DNA of 42,109 nt from a virus (taxonomy: Duplodnaviria > Heunggongvirae > Uroviricota > Caudoviricetes): the IMG/VR virus record IMGVR_UViG_2724679238_000007, positions 1-42,109 of that record; one strand, given 5' to 3'. Position 1 is the stretch's first letter, and each line of letters begins with the position of its first letter. A model generated the notes under the pieces. The model saw nothing but the letters and a program-made list of their open reading frames with translations, searched no databases and was not told the origin of the DNA. A program made the translations under genes and the position numbers. Positions 1 to 12,421 of the stretch are shown one piece after another.

Positions 1-1804
<1,804 letters not shown>

Positions 1805-1847
1805 TGGTGCGAGGATTGGTTGATACCCTCCACCTCCTGAAGAAATT

Positions 1848-1874
1848 ATGCCCGGCATCAACCGGGCATTTTCC
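1848..1874. terminator. bidirectional intrinsic terminator between convergent baseplate and ant genes
   Basis: ATGCCCGG-catcaa-CCGGGCAT hairpin followed by TTTTCC on the plus strand and flanked by an A/T-rich stretch on the other side. Confidence 0.55.
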
Positions 1875-1875
1875 A

Positions 1876-2988
1876 TTATTCAGCCGCCACCGGTTTTAAC
1901 AAGCCAGCATCGAGCAGTTTACGCGTCAACCACTGCTGGCCTTTCCCCGTTAATTGAGGCGTCAGCCGTATCTGGTAGCCATCTTCATCATCCAGCACCA
2001 CTTCTTTCACTGTGAAATATCCGGCGTTTATGTACTGCTGAAACGGTACATTTTTACGTCCGCCGGACGCAATCAGGATGCCGTTCTCCCGTAACCAGGC
2101 AAACAGCGCATTTTGCTTAAGTCCAACAACCTTTGCAAAATTCCCAATCAGGATCCCCTTCGCCACTGATACCCGATCGGCAAAATCGACTTTGGGTGCT
2201 GCGGCCACCAGTTGTTGATTTAGCTGGTGGGCCTTCTGTTCCAGTAGCTGCTTTTGTTCAGCCAGCTCGGCAGCCAGACGCAGAGCTTCTGGAAGCGTCT
2301 GGGGGATTGCGATCGGTTGCTGTTCTTTTTGTCGGAAGTAGCTGTCTTCCAGTTTTTCAAAGAATGCCCATGCTTCATTTGTGTCCACGATCTTAGACAT
2401 GCGTGCAGCGCCGCGCTCTGTCCAGAGTGTAAGGCTTCTGGCGTTCTTACCAACAGAGTAACTTCCGGTTACTCTGTTCTTAAATTCTCTTAATTTTAAA
2501 CCAGTTAGAAGAAAGTAATGCTTACCTTCTTCAAAGCGGTCAAGGTTGCGAGACAAATTGTTGCGAATATTGGCTTCATCGACCCCATACCCTCTAGCAA
2601 GAGTTTCGGTTGTCACGACACGTACTCCCTGCCATTCCAGAACGGGAATTTCATCCGGCTGATTCTGAACAACCACCAGTTCCGATTCCTGAACTGAAGG
2701 TGCATAAATTTTTTCTGATTTAACGTTAGTTGCTTTCATTCTGTGTGCCTCCTTGCGTGCTTCGGCTGCGACGGTTGCATAATTCAGATGCCCCTGTTCG
2801 AGCAGGTATTCACGAATATCAGACAGCAGAATGCGGTGAACCGCGTTCTTGTCCTTTCTCCGGTAAAGTTGTTTGGTGATCATGAAGTAGTTGGCAATCA
2901 CGCCCGGTATATCCCTGGTACTGATACAGGCTGTGTGCTGTTCAATTGCCTCGATCATCTCTTCACGGGTGACTAATGACGTTCTCAT
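1876..2988 (-). CDS. ant: phage antirepressor Ant (N-terminal ORF6N/Bro-N-like plus C-terminal KilA-C/ANT domain), copy 1
   Basis: 370 aa; C-terminus (AKVVGLKQNALFAWLRENGIL...YINAGYFTVKEVV...TGKGQQWL) is the KilA-C/ANT signature; start overlaps the icd-like stop by 4 nt; lies downstream of a C1 operator and a c4-like region, as in the P1 immI layout. Confidence 0.8.
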   Translation of the reverse strand: MRTSLVTREEMIEAIEQHTACISTRDIPGVIANYFMITKQLYRRKDKNAVHRILLSDIREYLLEQGHLNYATVAAEARKEAHRMKATNVKSEKIYAPSVQESELVVVQNQPDEIPVLEWQGVRVVTTETLARGYGVDEANIRNNLSRNLDRFEEGKHYFLLTGLKLREFKNRVTGSYSVGKNARSLTLWTERGAARMSKIVDTNEAWAFFEKLEDSYFRQKEQQPIAIPQTLPEALRLAAELAEQKQLLEQKAHQLNQQLVAAAPKVDFADRVSVAKGILIGNFAKVVGLKQNALFAWLRENGILIASGGRKNVPFQQYINAGYFTVKEVVLDDEDGYQIRLTPQLTGKGQQWLTRKLLDAGLLKPVAAE

Positions 2989-3206
2989 AGCCCCTCCTGA
3001 GCAGAAGCGTTAACAGTGAGGCACCAGTAACTGAGAGAATTGCGCAAATCGGTAGAAAAGCGAGCAGAGAAAATACAGGGAGCATCCGGAAGCTGAGAAC
3101 GTGCCTCATCTTCTGTTGGTGCGATAACGAAGTGATAGTGACGTTTTTGACAAGAATAGAAACGCCAGATGAATTCTTGGCGTGCGCAAGGATTGGCATT
3201 AACCAT
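2985..3206 (-). CDS. icd: Icd-like small protein (host cell-division inhibitor family by position), copy 1
   Basis: 73 codons starting at the internal ATG (MVNANPCARQEF...); same length and position as P1 icd; translationally coupled to ant; RBS overlaps a c4 target octamer. The 139-aa extension in the ORF track is not supported by the paralogue. Confidence 0.6.
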   Translation of the reverse strand: MVNANPCARQEFIWRFYSCQKRHYHFVIAPTEDEARSQLPDAPCIFSARFSTDLRNSLSYWCLTVNASAQEGL

Positions 3207-3242
3207 AGTTACGGCCTCATTCGTAGGTTTAACAACCTGCGA

Positions 3243-3330
3243 CCCGCTGCTAAACGGGTGGCAGGACGTGACGGGGTTAGCAGACTGGCACGAATGAAAC
3301 CAGCAGGCCGAAGCCTCCCCACCACGCCCC
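3243..3330 (-). ncRNA. c4: c4-type antisense RNA, copy 1 (boundaries approximate)
   Basis: Non-coding stretch between the operator/promoter and icd. It contains CACGAATG (3289-3296) presented between a CTGG/CCAG stem, complementary to CATTCGTA present both upstream (3402-3409) and at the icd RBS (3218-3225). It also contains a UUCG hairpin and a 7-bp CTGCTAA/TTAGCAG stem. Confidence 0.45.
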
Positions 3331-3507
3331 ACCATAATTTGGGCGTAACGCGGTTTTACGGACATAAAAATACCGCAATATCGGAAATCTGCGGTTGTCC
3401 GCATTCGTATTCAGGCTGCTAAACCCGGTCGCAGAATTTGCTACGACGGCGGAACTATAAGCCTGAACAACAGGAAGATCAATAGTCTGGCGTTCGATGG
3501 TAGTTTA

Positions 3508-3540
3508 TTTGCTCTAATAAATCAAATTTATTAGAGCAAT
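3508..3540. promoter_or_regulatory. pair of abutting, inverted C1-repressor operators controlling the c4-icd-ant (copy 1) promoter
   Basis: 3524-3540 is a perfect reverse match to ATTGCTCTAATAAATTT; 3508-3524 is a 14/17 forward match. Confidence 0.75.
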
Positions 3541-3586
3541 AAGCGGTGTCGTAAAAATCAATACAATCACAATCATATGAATAGAA

Positions 3587-4585
3587 TCAATCATTACCGC
3601 GCGACGGTTTCTGCGTGATAAACGTATCAAGCATCTTTTCCGCAATTGCCGACCAGGTGTGACACTGGACCTTTTCAGCATTTTTCACGCGATCAATGCG
3701 AGCAATAACCTCATCCCAATCAATCCGCGACTTGATAACCATATGGTTCACCAAAGCCAGGCGATCCGGCGGAAGACAATCGGGCGGCGTTAATATCAAC
3801 GCCCCACACATTGCCGCCTCAAGAACAGTTAATCCAAGGCTTTCGGGATGCGTAACGATAAAAACGTCACTCTTACGCAATTCAGCTGCAAATTCGGTTG
3901 CTGGTACCGGCGTCCGTCTGTATGGGGTTACCGATATATTCCCTGGATCAATGGTAATCAATCCGTCATCGGTCAACGTTCTGGCCTCATACGGAACGGT
4001 CAGACGCTGAAGGTTCATAAGGATACTTAAGGAGTGATCAAAACCACTAACATCAAATGCAGCGTGGTCTACAAAAATACGCAGAACATCGTCTGTTTTG
4101 GTTTCCAGATGGAACAGCTCCTGATTCGCTGCCCATCCAACATGTTTGTTAAAACGATTATGGCGCTCTAACCTGCCGGGATTATCCAGGTACCGCCAAG
4201 TATCATCGCGGACAGTAAAAGTAATATCGACTGGTGCCGAATCCAGCATAGAACCGTCGTATACCTGGGCTACCCATCCAGTGAATCGAAGACGCAGTTG
4301 CACGCCTATTTCCCTGGGCACCGTAGTAAAATACCGCAATCCTGGCGCTAAAATGGCTTTCGCAGAACACGAGGTCGCAGCGGTCAACACAGCTTCAACA
4401 TAATCCTCCGGGCTTTCGACGCCGGGGGAATATGGACGATGGTATTGCAATGTTACCCCAGCCTCACTAAAGGCGCAGGCCAGGTTATAAGCCCACATTT
4501 CCGTATATGTTTTCACATCACTGATGGCTTCAAATTTTCGCCCAATGATCAGGATGTTCATCGGCTTTTCCTCATTCCATTGCAT
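3587..4585 (-). CDS. Dbn-like protein with a GT-B glycosyltransferase-like C-terminal motif
   Basis: 332 aa; start overlaps the ban stop (TAATG); motif HPESLGLTVLEAAMCGALIL resembles the GT4 donor-binding E-x7-E region; position matches P1 dbn. An alternative start at 4561 has a better SD. Confidence 0.55.
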   Translation of the reverse strand: MQWNEEKPMNILIIGRKFEAISDVKTYTEMWAYNLACAFSEAGVTLQYHRPYSPGVESPEDYVEAVLTAATSCSAKAILAPGLRYFTTVPREIGVQLRLRFTGWVAQVYDGSMLDSAPVDITFTVRDDTWRYLDNPGRLERHNRFNKHVGWAANQELFHLETKTDDVLRIFVDHAAFDVSGFDHSLSILMNLQRLTVPYEARTLTDDGLITIDPGNISVTPYRRTPVPATEFAAELRKSDVFIVTHPESLGLTVLEAAMCGALILTPPDCLPPDRLALVNHMVIKSRIDWDEVIARIDRVKNAEKVQCHTWSAIAEKMLDTFITQKPSRGND

Positions 4586-6230: not shown

Positions 6231-6306
6231 TGGTGACCCCTACCGGACTTGAACCGGTGACCGTGCGATTATGAGTCGCCAGCTCTAACCACTGAGCTAA
6301 AGGGCC
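6231..6306 (-). tRNA. tRNA-Ile2 (anticodon CAU, ileX-like; Met not excluded from sequence alone)
   Basis: 76 nt cloverleaf read by hand: acceptor GGCCCTT/AGGGGTC, D-arm TAGCTCAGTGGTTAGAGC, anticodon loop CTCATAA, T-loop GGTTCAAGTCC, encoded CCA; very similar to E. coli ileX as recalled. Confidence 0.75.
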
Positions 6307-6309
6307 GGA

Positions 6310-6417
6310 TTACTGTTTCCTGAGTGCTTCTATGACGCCAGCAATACCGCCTACAACTATGCCAGCAATGACAACGAGAACAATTGGATGCTTGTCAGCA
6401 AAATCCCAGAAGCCCAT
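6310..6417 (-). CDS. small hydrophobic membrane peptide (about 35 aa), tciC-like by position
   Basis: MGFWDFADKHPIVLVVIAGIVVGGIAGVIEALRKQ; start overlaps the upstream stop (TGATG); below the ORF-track size cutoff. Confidence 0.35.
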   Translation of the reverse strand: MGFWDFADKHPIVLVVIAGIVVGGIAGVIEALRKQ

Positions 6418-6581
6418 CACTGTTCCTTCGAGGCTGTATTAAATATCGGCCATACCAATGTTACAGCTACTGCTACCAACGCCCCGTCGGATAAAATCGA
6501 CAGGATTGTGCTGGTGAAATCCACCAGCACAGATAGCACGAGAAAGACAAAAGCTAGAATTAAACGTGCTTTTATAACCAT
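6417..6581 (-). CDS. small membrane protein (54 aa), tciB-like by position
   Basis: MVIKARLILAFVFLVLSVLVDF...; start overlaps the TerB-like stop (TGATG), so three genes are translationally coupled in series. Confidence 0.35.
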   Translation of the reverse strand: MVIKARLILAFVFLVLSVLVDFTSTILSILSDGALVAVAVTLVWPIFNTASKEQ

Positions 6582-7006
6582 CAGATATACTGTTCCAGTG
6601 GCAATTGAAGAGCCTGGGCAATTTTCTTCAATTGCTCCTGTTCTTCAGCCCCAATGCCATCCTGGTCGGCAATATCAATACATAGGCACAGAACATCTAC
6701 CGCATCATTAGTCCCGGCCACATCAGCCAGCTCACGTAAAGCCTGGGCATTAGCTCGGCGCGGCGAGGCTTCATATTGAGCGCGAATATTGGCGCTCATC
6801 TGGGCAATTTCACCGGAGAACGGCGCAAAGGCAGGAAGCGCTGCAATGGTTTTTTCCAATACTGCAATTTCTTTCGCATCGCAGGTGCCGTCAGAGTATG
6901 CAATGGAATATGCGCCCCAGACGGTCGCTTCCACCGCATCACGGTTTTCCATCTTCTTGACTCCGCCAGCCGCTTTGCGGAATTTCTTTTTGAGAATGCC
7001 GAGCAT
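6581..7006 (-). CDS. TerB-domain protein (tellurite-resistance TerB family; P1 TciA-like)
   Basis: 141 aa with TerB-like helical pattern (AVLEKTIAALPAF...DVLCLCIDIADQDG...EEQEQLKKIAQAL). Confidence 0.65.
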   Translation of the reverse strand: MLGILKKKFRKAAGGVKKMENRDAVEATVWGAYSIAYSDGTCDAKEIAVLEKTIAALPAFAPFSGEIAQMSANIRAQYEASPRRANAQALRELADVAGTNDAVDVLCLCIDIADQDGIGAEEQEQLKKIAQALQLPLEQYI

Positions 7007-7267
7007 TTATTAACCTCATTACTGGTTGGGAAATAAGGTTGCGGTGCCGGGTGCCTCCCGGTGTCCTTTGGCTGGTTATCCACCGTGGACGGGGAAAAGG
7101 AGAAATTAATGGACTGATATAACCATTTCCCCGCGTGCGCTTAGCCGCATTCACCGCAATGGTAAGAGCACTTGGCTGGCTGGGCGGCGATGACGCCTGT
7201 ACGCATTTGGTGATCCGGTTCTGCTTCCGGCATTCGCTTAATTAGCCAAATACTCTTAACGTTGCGC

Positions 7268-7354
7268 TGGTGGAGAGTAATGGAATCGAACCATCATCGC
7301 TTGCGCAATGGGACGGTTTTCAAGACCGTTTGAGCACCATGCTCCCTACTCTCC
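7268..7354 (-). tRNA. class II tRNA-Ser (anticodon UGA), candidate
   Basis: 87 nt: perfect 7-bp acceptor GGAGAGT/ACTCTCC, anticodon arm ACGGT-CTTGAAA-ACCGT, 17-nt variable arm with a 5-bp stem, T-loop TTCGATT, encoded CCA; D-arm is atypical (4-bp stem, 5-nt loop). Confidence 0.5.
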
Positions 7355-7586
7355 GGCCGTTGTGGTGACCGGTACTGAATCTCCGGCATACGGTGCAGCC
7401 AATTAGGACTACGGACGATCACCGCTCGCGAAAGGGAAGATTTGCGGCCGCATTTCCCTAACATCCAAGAAAGCTATCGCATCAGTCTGCGAATCCACCA
7501 CAACGGAAAGAGCATTTATGGCTCGCATCGCGGGAAAAAGCCCACGGTAGAGAGTCGAACTCTACAAATACTCTTACCTGTTGTGC

Positions 7587-7719
7587 TGGTGCCGGTTAAC
7601 GGATTCGAACCGCTGACCTCTGGCCTAACATCGAATCGTTGTCATTTGACCAGCAAGGCTGTCTACCGAAGTAGAAACGATGCTTTGGCTCTCGTGCTCT
7701 CCCACTGAGCTAAACCGGC
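7587..7719 (-). tRNA. atypical 133-nt tRNA-like gene with Thr-like acceptor, D and T arms but about 57 extra nt in place of a canonical anticodon arm (intervening sequence or pseudogene)
   Basis: Perfect acceptor GCCGGTT/AACCGGC plus A-CCA, D-arm TAGCTCAGTGGGAGAGC, T-arm AGCGG-TTCGAAT-CCGTT; the middle contains a UUCG-capped hairpin (TCTAC-TTCG-GTAGA) and no canonical 5-bp/7-nt anticodon stem-loop; 2 nt from tRNA-Asn. Confidence 0.4.
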
Positions 7720-7721
7720 AT

Positions 7722-7797
7722 TGGCGATGGTGGGTGGATTCGAACCACCGACCAGTTAGTTAACAGCCAACTGCTCTAACCGCTGAGCTACACCATC
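7722..7797 (-). tRNA. tRNA-Asn (anticodon GUU)
   Basis: 76 nt: perfect acceptor GATGGTG/CACCATC, D-arm TAGCTCAGCGGTTAGAGC, anticodon arm GTTGG-CTGTTAA-CTAAC, T-arm GGTGG-TTCGAAT-CCACC, discriminator G plus CCA. Confidence 0.8.
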
Positions 7798-8459: not shown

Positions 8460-8487
8460 ATTACACTAATAAATTTATTAGAGCAAT
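8460..8487. promoter_or_regulatory. overlapping inverted pair of C1 operators (palindromic bipartite operator) at the 3' end of dmt
   Basis: 8471-8487 is a perfect reverse match to the C1 consensus; 8460-8476 is a 15/17 forward match; the two overlap on AAATTT; positioned to control leftward transcription into the tRNA-tci-ban-dbn region. Confidence 0.7.
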
Positions 8488-11400
8488 ACAGCAATAACGT
8501 CATGAGCTACACCACGAGTGTTTCCCTTACAAGACACAGAACGTCTGGCAAAAAGAGGTTCCACTCTGAAGCCACTGTCTTGGTAAAGCTCCCTGATGTT
8601 TGGCGCACCACTATTAGTAATGAGGATCTTTGCACCTCGGCGATGAGCATCCATTAGCAGAGATACCAGGCGTTTTTGCTCTTCAAACTTAAAGTCATGA
8701 CCGGAATAGTTTGTGAACCCCTCTGTATTGGGGAGCGGTTCATACGGAGGATCGCAAAAGATGACATCTCCTTCTCCGGCAGCTTCAATCACCGCTGAAA
8801 AATCACCACATACAAACTCAGAACGCCCTTCAGCACCGAGGAAGGCTTCCATCTCCTGTAATGGGAAATACGGAGTTTTATACTTCCCATAACCAACATT
8901 AAACTCACCGGCCTGGTTGTAACGCGTCAATCCGTTAAAACAATGTCGGTTCAGGAACAAAAACGCTGCTGCACGATGTAAATCATCATAGGCTTGTTTG
9001 TTAAACGAATTCCGTACTGCCAGGTATCCTTCCTGTGTGTTGTAGTCCTGGAAAAACCGATGCGCCAGAGTGATAAGTGAATGTCCCTCACGTTGCAGAG
9101 TCCTGTAAAAGTTAATCAGGTCAGCATTCACATCATTTAGCAGATTTTCTTGATATCCGGCATTTATGAAGACAGCTCCGCCACCAACGAAAGGCTCGAT
9201 CAGGCGCTTTCCGTCAGGTAAATGCCTAAAGATTTGTTCAAGAACACCAAATTTTCCGCCGACCCATTTAAATATGGGACGGTCAAATTCTGCCGTTAGC
9301 TTAACTCTCCGTTCTGTTGCTTCATGATTTTTTGCCTGCTGATATGCAGCCTTAATAATCCGCTCACCAATCCATCGCATTACTGGTATCGCCATGCTAT
9401 TGCCGATCGCTTTGTAACGCGGTCCGTCAGCTGCAAGCATCGCGGCCTCTTCTTCGCTTAAATCTGGATAGTGATTGCGAAGGTATGCCAGTTCATCTGA
9501 AGTAACTTTTTTACGCTTTTCCGTCGGGATCAACGTATGCCCATCAGGAAAACCTTGCAGTCTTTCACATTCGACAGGGGTTAGACGGCGCATACTACCG
9601 TCGCCGAGCAATACAATTGGTGCTTCATGGTTACATGTCAAAGTTGGTGCCGAATTATCGGTTTTTATCTCAGCCCCTCCTTGCCCATGTGCCATGGCTA
9701 TTATGTTTGTATCATCGCAAGATCTGATAGCGATGTTTGAAGTATATCTGGTAGTTTCCTTCCCCTCGCCTCTGCTCGGCGCAATATCCCGACGCACGCC
9801 TTCGAACTCAAAAAGTACCGTTGCGGGATCGAGGTCTGTTCGAGCACTTGCGACAACAAACACGCGTCGGCGTCGTTGTGCCACTCCGAAGTATTGGGCA
9901 TCAAGGATTCTCCAGGCCACCTTTCGCTGCGGTCCATAAATACAACCACACTGCGGCCACTTTGGAGCATGGCAACCGGTTTTGACATCCCACCGCCAGA
10001 ACGCGTTACTTTTTCGTGATTCAGGTCGATCACCTGGTTCGAATGGCGCATCTTCTCCAGCCAATCCGGCAAGGAAACATCCAAAGGCGTTATCTGCCGA
10101 TGACAAGACTCCTGGGACATTTTCCCAGACGATAACGGCTGGTTTGAGAAATGACTCAGCCCGTTTGTCGTCAATTGCATTTGCAAGCTCCACATACTTT
10201 AAAGTTAGCGCGCCACGCTCATCATCAAGCCCACCACGTAATCCCGCGATACTGAATGCCTGACAGTTATGGACCACCGCACCATTGAGGATATAGGAAT
10301 GATCACCTTCGACTTCTATGTTGTATACAGTATCTAGGCCTACCGATTTAAACTCTTTGACTGTTCGTAAAAGCATTCCATGAGCCAATCTTGATTTACG
10401 TGACAATTTCTGCGGGCAGATTGTTACCTGATAATAATTCCGTTGATTTACCACGCGATCCTCGATCACTTTTTTGGGCTCAACTTCAATAAAGCTGACC
10501 GAAGAAACATAACCACAAGTCTGTGACACCCCCGCAACGCCCCAAGCAAGCGCAGGACTAACACTATTAATTCTAAATCCCGCTTTACCACTTGGTGTCC
10601 CATCAGTATCAAGATAGCCTTGTAAAAACACATGACGCAATGGATGCGACATCACCCATGCAGGGATACGCTTAGCATGGCTTAACTCGCCAAAATGTTC
10701 ATTAAGCCAATTGGCATAACACGTATCATTCAAGGTTACTTTGATGCTCCCTCGGATTTCTCTTGCCACGGAAAATATGTTTTCTGGTATGCGACAATGA
10801 AACTTTCTCAATTTCTGGCAATTTATGCCAAAAACAACCGCCTTCTTAGATTTACCTCTCCATCTCCTAATATATCCATCGCCAACATAAGCGCCCGCAA
10901 GATACATAGCCTGTTCTTCAGACAAGAACCGAGAACAAATATCTGGAGATGCAATATTGAAATTAGTTAGAGCGCACCATTGATATCCTGGCATATCACA
11001 TGCTGCTCGCCATTCCGGTTCAGACAACAACTCTCTCTTAAAATATGTGCCATTTTTCCGGGTGTTTTGGGCTTTCCACCGAACAGCTAGGAAGGGATGG
11101 TCATTGGTTGTTCTTATACCTAAAGGCTGCCCAACGGCATTAAGTAACCCCGTATTAGCTATTTTTGAACCAACTCTTTTTACTTGTTGTAACCGCCCGA
11201 GATGACTGACTACGTAATCGCCAGGGCAAACATCTTCTATTGGTTTATAACCATTTTTACAAAGAACCATATGCCCCGCGGTAAAACATGGTGTTCCCCC
11301 GACGAGCACGTCAGGGGATTCGATTTCCCCAGCCAGGACTTTTTTGGCAAGTTTAGTCATGTCGCCAAGGTTGGCGACATGGGGCCAGCGGTGCGCAAGA

Positions 11401-11519
11401 ACGGCAGATGGAAAAGGCTCGATTTCAGCAAACCAAGCCGGACGCATACCCAACGGTTCCCAGGCAATACTCGCAGCTTCTATTCCACTGCAAACAGATC
11501 CATAGCACAGCTCTTTCAC
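8478..11519 (-). CDS. dmt: bifunctional DNA methyltransferase: N-terminal C5-cytosine MTase fused to C-terminal Dam-like N6-adenine MTase, interrupted in-frame by an intein
   Basis: GTG start with GGAGAGG SD, overlapping the hrdC stop. C5-MTase motifs include ENV (VWENVPG), QRRRRVFVV and AIGNSM; the PCQ motif is split as GGTP|intein|CQAFSIAG. Dam-like half has FKWVGGK and DPPY and is alignable to E. coli Dam as recalled. Confidence 0.9.
10266..11288 (-). mobile_element. intein (341 aa) with Hint splicing blocks and a LAGLIDADG homing-endonuclease domain, inserted at the catalytic Cys of the C5-MTase PCQ motif
   Basis: Begins with Cys ([10 protein letters not shown]...), block B-like TNDHPF, two LAGLIDADG motifs ([12 protein letters not shown] and [11 protein letters not shown]), ends ...ILNGAVVHN followed by +1 Cys; in-silico excision restores [12 protein letters not shown]. 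Confidence 0.8.
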
Positions 11520-12421
11520 AGCTTAGCCTCTCCACCAAGGGCATTTACCAGAGCATCAACCAGGCACGAAATTTCACTGGTCAACAGGAAGAAATCTGCG
11601 TCCAGTCGCTGCGCAACATCTTCACTATCGATATCAGAGTTCTGCTCAAGCAATTCATCCGCAAATTTGACGCTGGTAAGGCTGAAGTTATGGTCCAGTG
11701 TAAATTTAATGCGGTTCTGCCAGTCGAGTGCCAACTTAGTGACGAGCTTGCCAGCTTCCAGGTGTGTGGAAATTTCATCGCTTCCCAAATCCTGCTTTTT
11801 CACTCGGGCAATACCGCCATCCTCAAGCACTGCCTTAAGTTCTGCCGCATCCCCCATTTGAAATCCCTGTGGAGCACTACCATCACGTACCCAGTCGGTC
11901 AGCGTTAATTCAATGGGATTTTCAACACTTAGGGGAACAACAGGAAGAGAACCCAGAGACTTACGCATAAGTGCGAGCATATCCTCTGCCTGCCGCGCGC
12001 TGGCATTGATATAGATACGTTTAGTTGAACCGTCGTAGATCGCCTGGATAACAGAAAACTTTGAAAAAGCCCGTGGCAGAAGAGAATGCAGAACTTCGTC
12101 TTTCAGGGAGTCCTTCTCTGTTTTCTTCAGTTTACGCGCTTGTTCTTGCTCAAGTTTTTCAATTTTTTCTTGAATAGCTCGCTGGATAACCGGCGGGGGA
12201 AGAATTTTTGTTTCGCGCTTTGCTTCAACAAGGATAAAACCATTTCCATGCATAGCGATAACTTCGGAATTATCACCAAATGGCGATACAAAACCGAACT
12301 TGGCCATATCCTGACTACCGCATGGCGTGAAAAGGATCATTTTCTTTTTATCTTCTAAGTCGGTCAGATCCGCCTCACGAGAAAGTTTATAAATAGTAAT
12401 GTTTTTCCAGTGCTTAAACAT
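11516..12421 (-). CDS. hrdC: recombination-associated protein RdgC homologue
   Basis: 301 aa from the internal ATG ([16 protein letters not shown]...), alignable along its length to E. coli RdgC as recalled ([11 protein letters not shown]..., [25 protein letters not shown]..., [12 protein letters not shown]...). The first 38 codons of the tracked ORF are probably not translated. Confidence 0.85.

Follow-up and report, generated by a model that had tools for sequence, protein, structure and literature searches.

A predicted homing intein at the catalytic cysteine of the Dcm-Dam fusion methyltransferase of P1-like phage-plasmids

Bacteriophage P1 has long served as a model phage and as an everyday tool of Escherichia coli genetics, and the P1-like phage-plasmids are important carriers of resistance genes. 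The question raised here concerns the dmt gene of such an element, found in a 42,109-nucleotide (nt) stretch of the IMG/VR virus record IMGVR_UViG_2724679238_000007 (Caudoviricetes; positions 1 to 42,109 of that record, called “the window” below), where a stretch of 341 amino acids (aa) interrupts the active-site motif of a DNA methyltransferase immediately before its catalytic cysteine. What is this insert, and is it still able to leave the protein and to move between genes? Our answer is that it is very probably a canonical class-1 intein with an intact LAGLIDADG homing endonuclease, lodged in dmt of an Escherichia albertii P1-like phage-plasmid between Pro77 and the catalytic Cys, and that from its residues it is predicted both to splice itself out of the protein and to cleave DNA. 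It is a known kind of element and brings no new element type or mechanism.

An earlier reading of this DNA, made from the letters alone and referred to here as the original prediction, had proposed an intein with a LAGLIDADG endonuclease in a Dcm-Dam fusion methyltransferase, and had added that inteins were not known to have been described in P1 Dmt or in DNA methyltransferases generally. The assignment as an intein is supported below by sequence profiles, by AlphaFold2 and Foldseek comparisons and by the existence of empty alleles; the claim of novelty survives only in part.

The insert in Dmt and its excision

The intein occupies 10266..11288 on the minus strand and encodes 341 aa (38.3 kDa), that is, residues 78-418 of the dmt product, and it is composed of the N and C lobes of a Hint domain around a LAGLIDADG (DOD) domain. 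The translation of the open reading frame agrees to the base with the limits and the length of the original prediction; as dmt lies on the minus strand, the N-terminus of the intein is at 11288 and its C-terminus at 10266, and the earlier account is corrected on this point. The insert peptide reads CFTAGHMV...NGAVVHN between the flanks DVLVGGTP and CQAFSIAG, with the insertion falling between Pro77 and the catalytic Cys of motif IV of the C5-cytosine methyltransferase (C5) domain, GGTP/C...HN/CQAFS (a slash marks a junction throughout). The PCQ motif is therefore split just as had been read before, ...LVGGTP/CFTAGHMV...ILNGAVVHN/CQAFSIAG, and the translation also contains every hallmark that had been listed, namely Cys1, a block-B-like motif, two LAGLIDADG motifs and a terminal HN followed by Cys. 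The G+C content of the intein is 42.7% vs. 48.7% in the rest of dmt.

The individual motifs, all of them on the minus strand, are placed as follows. Cys1 of block A, predicted to act as nucleophile in the N-S acyl shift, is encoded at 11286..11288, and block B (TxxH; T61-N-D-H64, intein residues 61-64) at 11097..11108. The first LAGLIDADG motif, LAGAYVGDG with the catalytic Asp137 (intein residues 130-138), is found at 10875..10901 and the second, LQGYLDTDG with the catalytic Asp229 (residues 222-230), at 10599..10625, and Lys206 is also present and conserved. Block F and the C-terminal end, closing with His340-Asn341, occupy 10266..10328, where the insert matches TIGR01443 and aligns to the C-terminus of the Spl DnaX mini-intein. 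In 12 homologues of 24-52% identity, Cys1, T61, H64 and N341 are invariant, and D137, D229, D329 and the +1 Cys are nearly so. Among the P1-type copies of the intein, 48 of 48 are intact, with the key residues unchanged and no stop or frameshift. The polymorphic codons in these 48 copies comprise 14 with synonymous changes only and 15 with replacements, the latter mostly within the endonuclease domain, which suggests moderate constraint on the intein (a ratio of roughly 0.3 by a rule of thumb and not by a codon model).

Alleles of dmt without the insert define its limits. Both the P7 Dam protein (672 aa) and the reference P1 Dmt (754 aa) align to the window product with a single clean gap of 341 residues, reading GGTP/CQAF at the junction; empty alleles have ...GGTACGCCT/TGTCAGGCATTC... 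as their homing-site sequence, and the empty dmt junction reads ...GTCGGGGGTACGCCTTGTCAGGCATTCAGTATC.... The unspliced dmt product matches the C5 methyltransferase profile PF00145 of Pfam in four stretches (E 3.9e-30, 105.8 bits), and when the insert was deleted in silico, as the original prediction had proposed, the match rose to 126.7 bits (E 1.8e-36), with one single stretch crossing the junction (residues 8-135 of the spliced product, profile positions 5-119). From this continuous match after excision it follows that the insert breaks motif IV (PCQ) immediately before the Cys. Once the insert is excised, C5 motifs I, IV (PCQ), VI (ENV), VIII (QxRxR) and X (GNS) are all intact and in order. 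The N-extein (aa 1-77; 11289..11519, minus strand) provides motif I and the first half of motif IV (GGTP), and the C5 part of the C-extein (9345..10265, minus strand) provides CQAFS of motif IV, ENVPG of motif VI, QRRRRVF of motif VIII, the target-recognition region and then motif X (GNS).

The motif IV Cys is the catalytic nucleophile of C5 methyltransferases. On the basis of the PF00145 alignment of the spliced product and of this established chemistry, the first residue of the C-extein, i.e., the +1 Cys (10263..10265, minus strand), is the catalytic Cys of the enzyme, and the idea that the methyltransferase lends its own nucleophile to the splice junction holds.

The profile evidence as a whole is positive, with the Pfam splicing-domain models borderline, and the matches and motifs taken together are far beyond chance. 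The intein/Hint and LAGLIDADG searches suggested in the original prediction gave significant matches to LAGLIDADG_3 (PF14528; E 6e-08, 33.2 bits vs. a gathering score of 22.5, best stretch at intein residues 221-284), to Hint_2 over the first 49 intein residues (E 2e-06, 28.5-29.4 bits vs. a gathering score of 28.4) and to the NCBIfam model TIGR01443, intein_Cterm (E 8e-06, 25.9-28.9 bits vs. a cut-off of 15.6), besides a weak Pfam match to Hom_end. The other weak NCBIfam matches of the insert are all to intein-containing proteins, i.e., ribonucleotide reductase (RNR), GyrA, RFC, DnaB and DnaE. A sequence search of the solved structures in the PDB gave marginal matches only (Spl DnaX mini-intein, E 0.0013; PI-PkoII, E 0.012), so the architecture was settled by fold comparison. 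The AlphaFold2 model of the intein, built with 12 homologues, has a mean predicted local distance difference test score (pLDDT) of 92.8 and a predicted template modelling score (pTM) of 0.89, and has an alpha/beta core enclosed by beta-rich lobes at the N- and C-termini. Its best Foldseek matches in the PDB are full-length intein endonucleases, PI-SceI at E 1.5e-16 followed by TliVMA, PhoVMA, PI-PfuI and PI-PkoII (to 1e-9), and lower matches are to the free-standing LAGLIDADG enzymes I-SceI, I-AniI and I-OnuI and to mini-inteins. By this model, the predicted fold of the insert is a Hint fold. PI-SceI (the Sce VMA1 intein), PI-PfuI, PI-PkoII and TliVMA share with the P1-type intein the predicted fold and domain order, with Hint lobes flanking a two-motif LAGLIDADG domain, and are class-1 inteins like it, with Cys1 and a terminal Asn followed by Cys; they differ from it in sequence (11-16% identity), in length (454-537 aa vs. 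341 aa) and in their unrelated exteins.

Distribution, mobility and rival readings

The intein is common. In PLSDB, 133 plasmids from Escherichia, Salmonella and Shigella contain its DNA at an identity of at least 95%, and 126 of the 503 PLSDB dmt matches cover the intein-containing query. Among 5426 complete E. coli genomes, 152 carry the intein and 491 the dmt N-extein, so that about 31% of the dmt alleles in these genomes have the intein and about 69% are without it. In phage records it is present in RCS47, in vB_EcoM-Ro157c2YLVW and in the laboratory P1 isolate OP279344, and absent from P7, SJ46 and the reference P1. Most related Dmt proteins thus lack the insert, and the original prediction had named the presence of the same 340 or so residues in related Dmt proteins, as a conserved non-splicing domain, as an argument against an intein. 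When 83 complete alleles, drawn from IMG/VR loci, the window and four phage records, are sorted by extein length, the classes of 672, 754 and 807 aa each contain intein-plus as well as empty alleles.

The DNA around the insertion point carries a pattern which suggests mobility. Within intein-plus alleles the diversity is 0.0058 in the intein vs. 0.034 in the adjacent N-extein, and the window intein is 99.0-99.5% identical to the copies of OP279344 and RCS47, with a Dam segment about 91.5% identical. The intein-plus RCS47 differs from the empty alleles at loci L049 and L078 at only 7 of 2262 extein positions, and five of these seven (128, 184, 210, 231 and 252) bracket the insertion point between positions 231 and 232, a clustering with a binomial P of about 1e-5 for a 125-nt window that was chosen post hoc. 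Among 74 distinct alleles, the association of extein single-nucleotide polymorphisms with the intein peaks at position 231 and fades within some 120 nt on the upstream and 160 nt on the downstream side. The upstream linked flank (extein positions 114-231, about 120 nt) and the adjoining start of the intein correspond to 11169..11405 on the minus strand and the downstream linked flank to 10105-10265, the two flanks forming the putative co-conversion tract. At position 231 itself, the codon of Pro77 (11289-11291, minus strand) is CCA in 20/20 intein-plus and CCT in 54/54 empty distinct alleles. Counted over all alleles, it is CCA in 22/22 and CCT in 61/61, and it is the sole perfectly linked marker of the flanks; this CCA may be the innermost co-converted base, or may be relevant to recognition by the endonuclease or to immunity. 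Judged from these alleles, the flank pattern is that expected of endonuclease-initiated gene conversion with short co-conversion tracts.

The mechanism that we propose is that of an ordinary class-1 intein. A 113.0-kDa precursor would be translated, Cys1 would make the N-S acyl shift, and the resulting thioester would be attacked by the +1 Cys, which is the future catalytic Cys of the enzyme. Asn341 would then cyclise with the help of His340, and the final S-N shift would yield a 74.7-kDa Dmt with an intact GGTPCQAFS, plus the free 38.3-kDa intein. Before splicing, no activity is expected of the C5 domain, as the insert breaks up its active-site loop and engages its nucleophile; the C-terminal Dam domain may fold on its own, independently of splicing. 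When two P1-like elements share a cell, the freed intein would cut the intein-less dmt around ...ACGCCT/TGTCAGG..., and recombinational repair would transfer the intein along with some 100-160 nt of adjoining extein. From the view of the phage, the most likely role of the intein is that of a selfish parasite, close to neutral, that exploits a conserved active-site motif.

Several observations weigh against this reading. The Hint_2 match barely reaches its threshold, and PF14890 (Intein_splicing), although its match spans both ends of the insert, gives 18-22 bits vs. a gathering score of 35.8. At the block F position where Asp is found in many inteins, the insert has Asn (VYN), a substitution that is probably tolerated, given that most homologues carry Asn there too, including in otherwise intact methyltransferases. 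The intactness of the P1-type copies says little on selection within the clade because their diversity is only 0.6%. A non-splicing insert could also persist if the C5 domain were dispensable, since only the Dam activity is known to matter to P1. And ordinary homologous recombination moving the intein with short flanks would give the same polymorphism pattern without any endonuclease.

There are three rival explanations of very different weight. The insert could be a fixed accessory domain of the enzyme and not an intein, e.g., a BIL/Hint domain or a nuclease module, in favour of which one may cite a weak likeness to the BIL domain structure 2lwy (E 0.86) and the insertion elements of unclear nature known in phage methylases (PMC9957025, PMC11855218); we give this virtually no credence, as about 69% of dmt alleles lack the insert at a precise junction, the insert has Cys1, TxxH, HN and the +1 Cys, and its best structural matches are true inteins with an endonuclease domain, with the BIL match not significant. 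A BIL domain in particular was ruled out by the endonuclease domain, the HN/C ending and the empty alleles. It is also very unlikely that the intein is decaying or dead for splicing, with the C5 domain permanently disrupted and the protein serving P1 by its C-terminal Dam domain only. This would agree with the borderline PF14890 score and the block F Asn, and with the background on P1: the P1 annotation gives the C5 activity of Dmt only as “perhaps”, and GATC methylation, from Dmt or from the host Dam, is the only methylation that P1 is known to need. From these same facts selection for splicing may be weak in the P1 clade, and the allele of Mannheimia phage 587AP2, frameshifted about 20 aa after its intein, indicates that such genes can decay. 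All the splicing residues are, however, kept in every one of the P1-type copies, which are free of stops and frameshifts, and are conserved in homologues down to 24% identity; the C5 motifs and the extein score of 126.7 bits speak for an enzyme that is still whole once spliced, and the block F Asn is common to most of the family.

The third rival keeps splicing and gives up homing: the intein would be competent to splice, its endonuclease inactive, and its patchiness due to general recombination among P1-like plasmids with occasional loss. We consider this unlikely, although it deserves more weight than the two former readings. The P1-like dmt is a mosaic, with swapped target-recognition cassettes and a divergent Dam segment in the window, the short flanking tracts could be ordinary recombination patches, and the replacement polymorphisms fall mostly in the endonuclease domain. 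Against this, the Asp of each LAGLIDADG motif is intact and conserved, as is Lys206, the linkage peaks exactly at the insertion point with a symmetric decay over about 100-160 nt, and the intein shows a several-fold lower diversity than the flanks next to it, as expected of a recent homing sweep.

Relatives in other methyltransferases and the annotation record

The P1-type intein has relatives at the same place in other enzymes. Homologues at 47-52% identity are found in C5 methyltransferases at the same GGTP/C...HN/CQ site, in metagenomes, in Mannheimia haemolytica prophages and in Metarhizobium, and homologues near 30% identity occupy the equivalent SPE/C.../CTNHS site of actinobacterial enzymes. 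Other phages with an intein at the same site are Propionibacterium phage B22 (gp50), the Escherichia jumbo phages A4, ph0011 and UE-S1, and Lactobacillus phage Nyseid, and there is one mini-intein without endonuclease at the same C5 methyltransferase site (P0023). At least 30 of the best 80 relatives in GTDB, with one genome per species, sit in motif IV of C5 methyltransferases; this is a conservative hand count from the junction sequences, as the regular-expression junction caller missed or mis-started some loci. By their record names, these motif IV inteins belong to Clostridia, Lachnospiraceae, Actinobacteria (Pseudoscardovia, Bifidobacterium and Arthrobacter) and Alpha-, Beta- and Gammaproteobacteria, and further to Chloroflexota, a cyanobacterium (Stenomitos), Bacteroidia families, a Parcubacteria-group genome, Chthoniobacterales and Polyangiaceae.

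These same-site inteins of phages and bacteria resemble that of P1 in their insertion point (P/C...HN/CQxxSxAG, or SP followed by D or E, then /C.../CTHxS) and in their Hint plus LAGLIDADG composition at about 330-360 aa, and are 27-52% identical to it over the full length. The P1-type intein forms a clade of its own, at most 52% identical to any non-P1 relative, and differs from them in its host, which is a Dcm-Dam fusion on phage-plasmids of Escherichia, Salmonella and Shigella. Among the records inspected, none of the same-site relatives carries an intein annotation. In the Mannheimia phage vB_MhS_587AP2 (positions 1264-3584 of our locus L009), a homologous intein of 47% identity lies at the same PC/Q site; the reading frame breaks about 20 residues past the intein, the remaining methyltransferase sequence has a gene annotation of its own, with an open reading frame for an HNH endonuclease after it, and from its sequence this allele looks like a decaying one. 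The open reading frame upstream of it, of 906 nt, has the same length as hrdC.

Inteins in DNA methylases are not new as such. Kelley et al. 2016 (PMC5050341) described the inteins DNMT-1 and DNMT-2 in N4/N6 DNA methylases of cluster E/F mycobacteriophages, and an intein in a mycobacteriophage methylase of the N4/N6 kind has been published as well (PMC9957025); the part of the original prediction which held inteins to be unknown in DNA methyltransferases generally is wrong in view of these reports, and the same-site C5 inteins tell against it too. In addition, a 2025 actinophage survey (bioRxiv 10.1101/2025.01.02.630785) counts C-5 methylases (IPR001525) by host family among the hosts “previously reported as containing inteins”. 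The actinobacteriophage inteins (DNMT-1, DNMT-2 and that of PMC9957025) have LAGLIDADG endonucleases and are patchy and horizontally transferred, as is the P1-type intein, and Pacc40 gp60, with the DNMT-1 intein of a cluster-F mycobacteriophage, is 27% identical to it over the full length. Unlike the P1-type intein, DNMT-1 and DNMT-2 sit in N4/N6 methylases, at a different site (MHV/C...KN/CPLQ) and in phages of actinobacterial hosts.

For P1 Dmt itself, the claim of novelty survives in so far as no description of an intein in P1, in P1-like phages or in Dmt was found in full-text literature searches, with intein registries and most of the subscription literature outside the search. In PMC11437467, PMC6266608, PMC8594841 and PMC12282955, the search terms are present only in unrelated contexts, and methylases do not come up in the main text of Novikova et al. 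2016 (PMC4760082). An intein annotation is also absent from all the P1-type records and protein clusters examined. The protein identical to that of the window, WP_059257149.1 of Escherichia albertii, has as its only database name “Dam family site-specific DNA-(adenine-N6)-methyltransferase”, one PGAP call labels the stretch “LAGLIDADG family homing endonuclease”, and fragments are labelled “Hint domain-containing protein”. As 133 plasmids of PLSDB and 152 of the complete E. coli genomes carry it, the P1-type intein is unremarked rather than rare.

The intein is matched over its whole length by the PHROG family phrog_26446, whose label is “anaerobic ribonucleoside reductase large subunit”, and several cluster-F mycobacteriophage DNA methylases bear the same name in RefSeq, some of them being “DNA helicase” in GenBank. 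It looks like such function names were propagated via the shared intein and not via the host protein.

The dmt gene around the intein and what the intein means for P1-like elements

The dmt precursor is encoded at 8478..11519 on the minus strand, by the sole long open reading frame over this region (1013 aa, 113.0 kDa calculated), which starts with GTG overlapping the stop of the upstream hrdC/rdgC homologue. Its identity as the dmt/dam gene of P1-like phages agrees with its neighbours, hrdC upstream and tRNA genes downstream, and with 96% nt identity to the annotated dmt of the P1 isolate OP279344 and of RCS47. In the product, the C5 domain with the intein inside it is followed by the C-terminal Dam (GATC N6-adenine) methyltransferase domain of the D12 class (8490..9281, minus strand), which matches PF02086 of Pfam (E 3.7e-57, 194 bits) and, over its full length, TIGR00571 of NCBIfam (252.5 bits, cut-off 114.85), with its DPPY motif at 8742-8753 on the minus strand by position in the translation. 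The tRNA genes downstream of dmt (6231-7797, minus strand) are those for Asn(gtt), Ser(tga) and Met(cat), and in P1, P7, RCS47 and OP279344 the annotation of this region gives tRNA-Asn and tRNA-Thr. Open reading frames of 90-219 codons, antisense or out of frame, also lie inside dmt (9475-10263 and 10695-11908, plus strand; 9701-10195, minus strand) and are taken as by-products of the dmt coding sequence; those on the opposite strand within the intein (e.g., 10695-10970, plus strand, 91 aa) were considered as genes and found unsupported, being antisense to conserved coding sequence.

The gene is variable apart from the intein. At least four length classes of the dmt exteins (672, 754, 807 and 862 aa; loci L036-L115) differ only in the target-recognition region, which in the window lies at about 9591-9773 on the minus strand, between C5 motifs VIII and IX. 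The window has the P7 type of this region and the reference P1 the RCS47 type, with about 60% nt identity between the two types, and this comparison of sequences suggests a cassette-like swapping of cytosine-methylation specificity among P1-like phages. In a mafft alignment, the linker and Dam part of the window gene (8478-9558, minus strand) is about 90-92% identical in nt to P1, P7, RCS47 and OP279344, which are 96-99.9% identical to each other over the same part, and the N-terminal part and the intein are 97-99.5% identical to the P1-type comparison alleles; the window dmt is accordingly a recombinant mosaic, since its Dam part diverges while its N-terminal part and intein stay near-identical. 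The best full-length matches of the gene, at 97.9%, are in Escherichia albertii plasmids. OP279344.1, a P1 isolate “del res del mod” from host MG1655 Z1 (positions 1501-4542 of our locus L001), has an intein-containing dmt with a short, P7-like recognition region, and the reference P1 c1-100 has a dmt without intein and with a long recognition region, so that laboratory “P1” stocks differ at dmt.

We also considered, by analogy with other systems, that splicing might be conditional, e.g., sensitive to redox or stress, so as to time the 5-methylcytosine self-protection of the phage, with the endonuclease serving as a weapon against incompatible P1-like plasmids that lack the intein and against superinfecting phages. 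Splicing could be conditional because the +1 nucleophile is the catalytic Cys and Cys1, Cys10 and Cys21 are nearby, and because some other inteins are redox- or stress-sensitive; we nevertheless hold this proposal to be quite unlikely. If true, it would give an advantage to intein-plus elements and could help to explain an allele frequency of roughly 30%.

E. coli is commonly regarded as a host free of inteins, a view for which our literature search found no usable supporting statement. For the annotation of P1-like elements, the present analysis means a correction: the gene is a C5/Dam fusion plus an intein, and in some pipelines it is divided or takes its name from the intein (“LAGLIDADG family homing endonuclease”, or “anaerobic ribonucleoside reductase” for related phage genes). 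For their biology, it offers a clean case in which the nucleophile of the splice junction doubles as the catalytic residue of the enzyme, and a natural, genetically tractable system for measuring the homing of an intein between plasmids or phages in E. coli. The laboratory P1 isolate OP279344, with its intein, places at hand a native E. coli system for the study of homing and of conditional splicing. In summary, what the dmt gene of the P1-like phage-plasmids very probably holds is an unremarked and yet common intein allele in a famous phage family, ordinary in its predicted mechanism and found in an experimentally convenient place.

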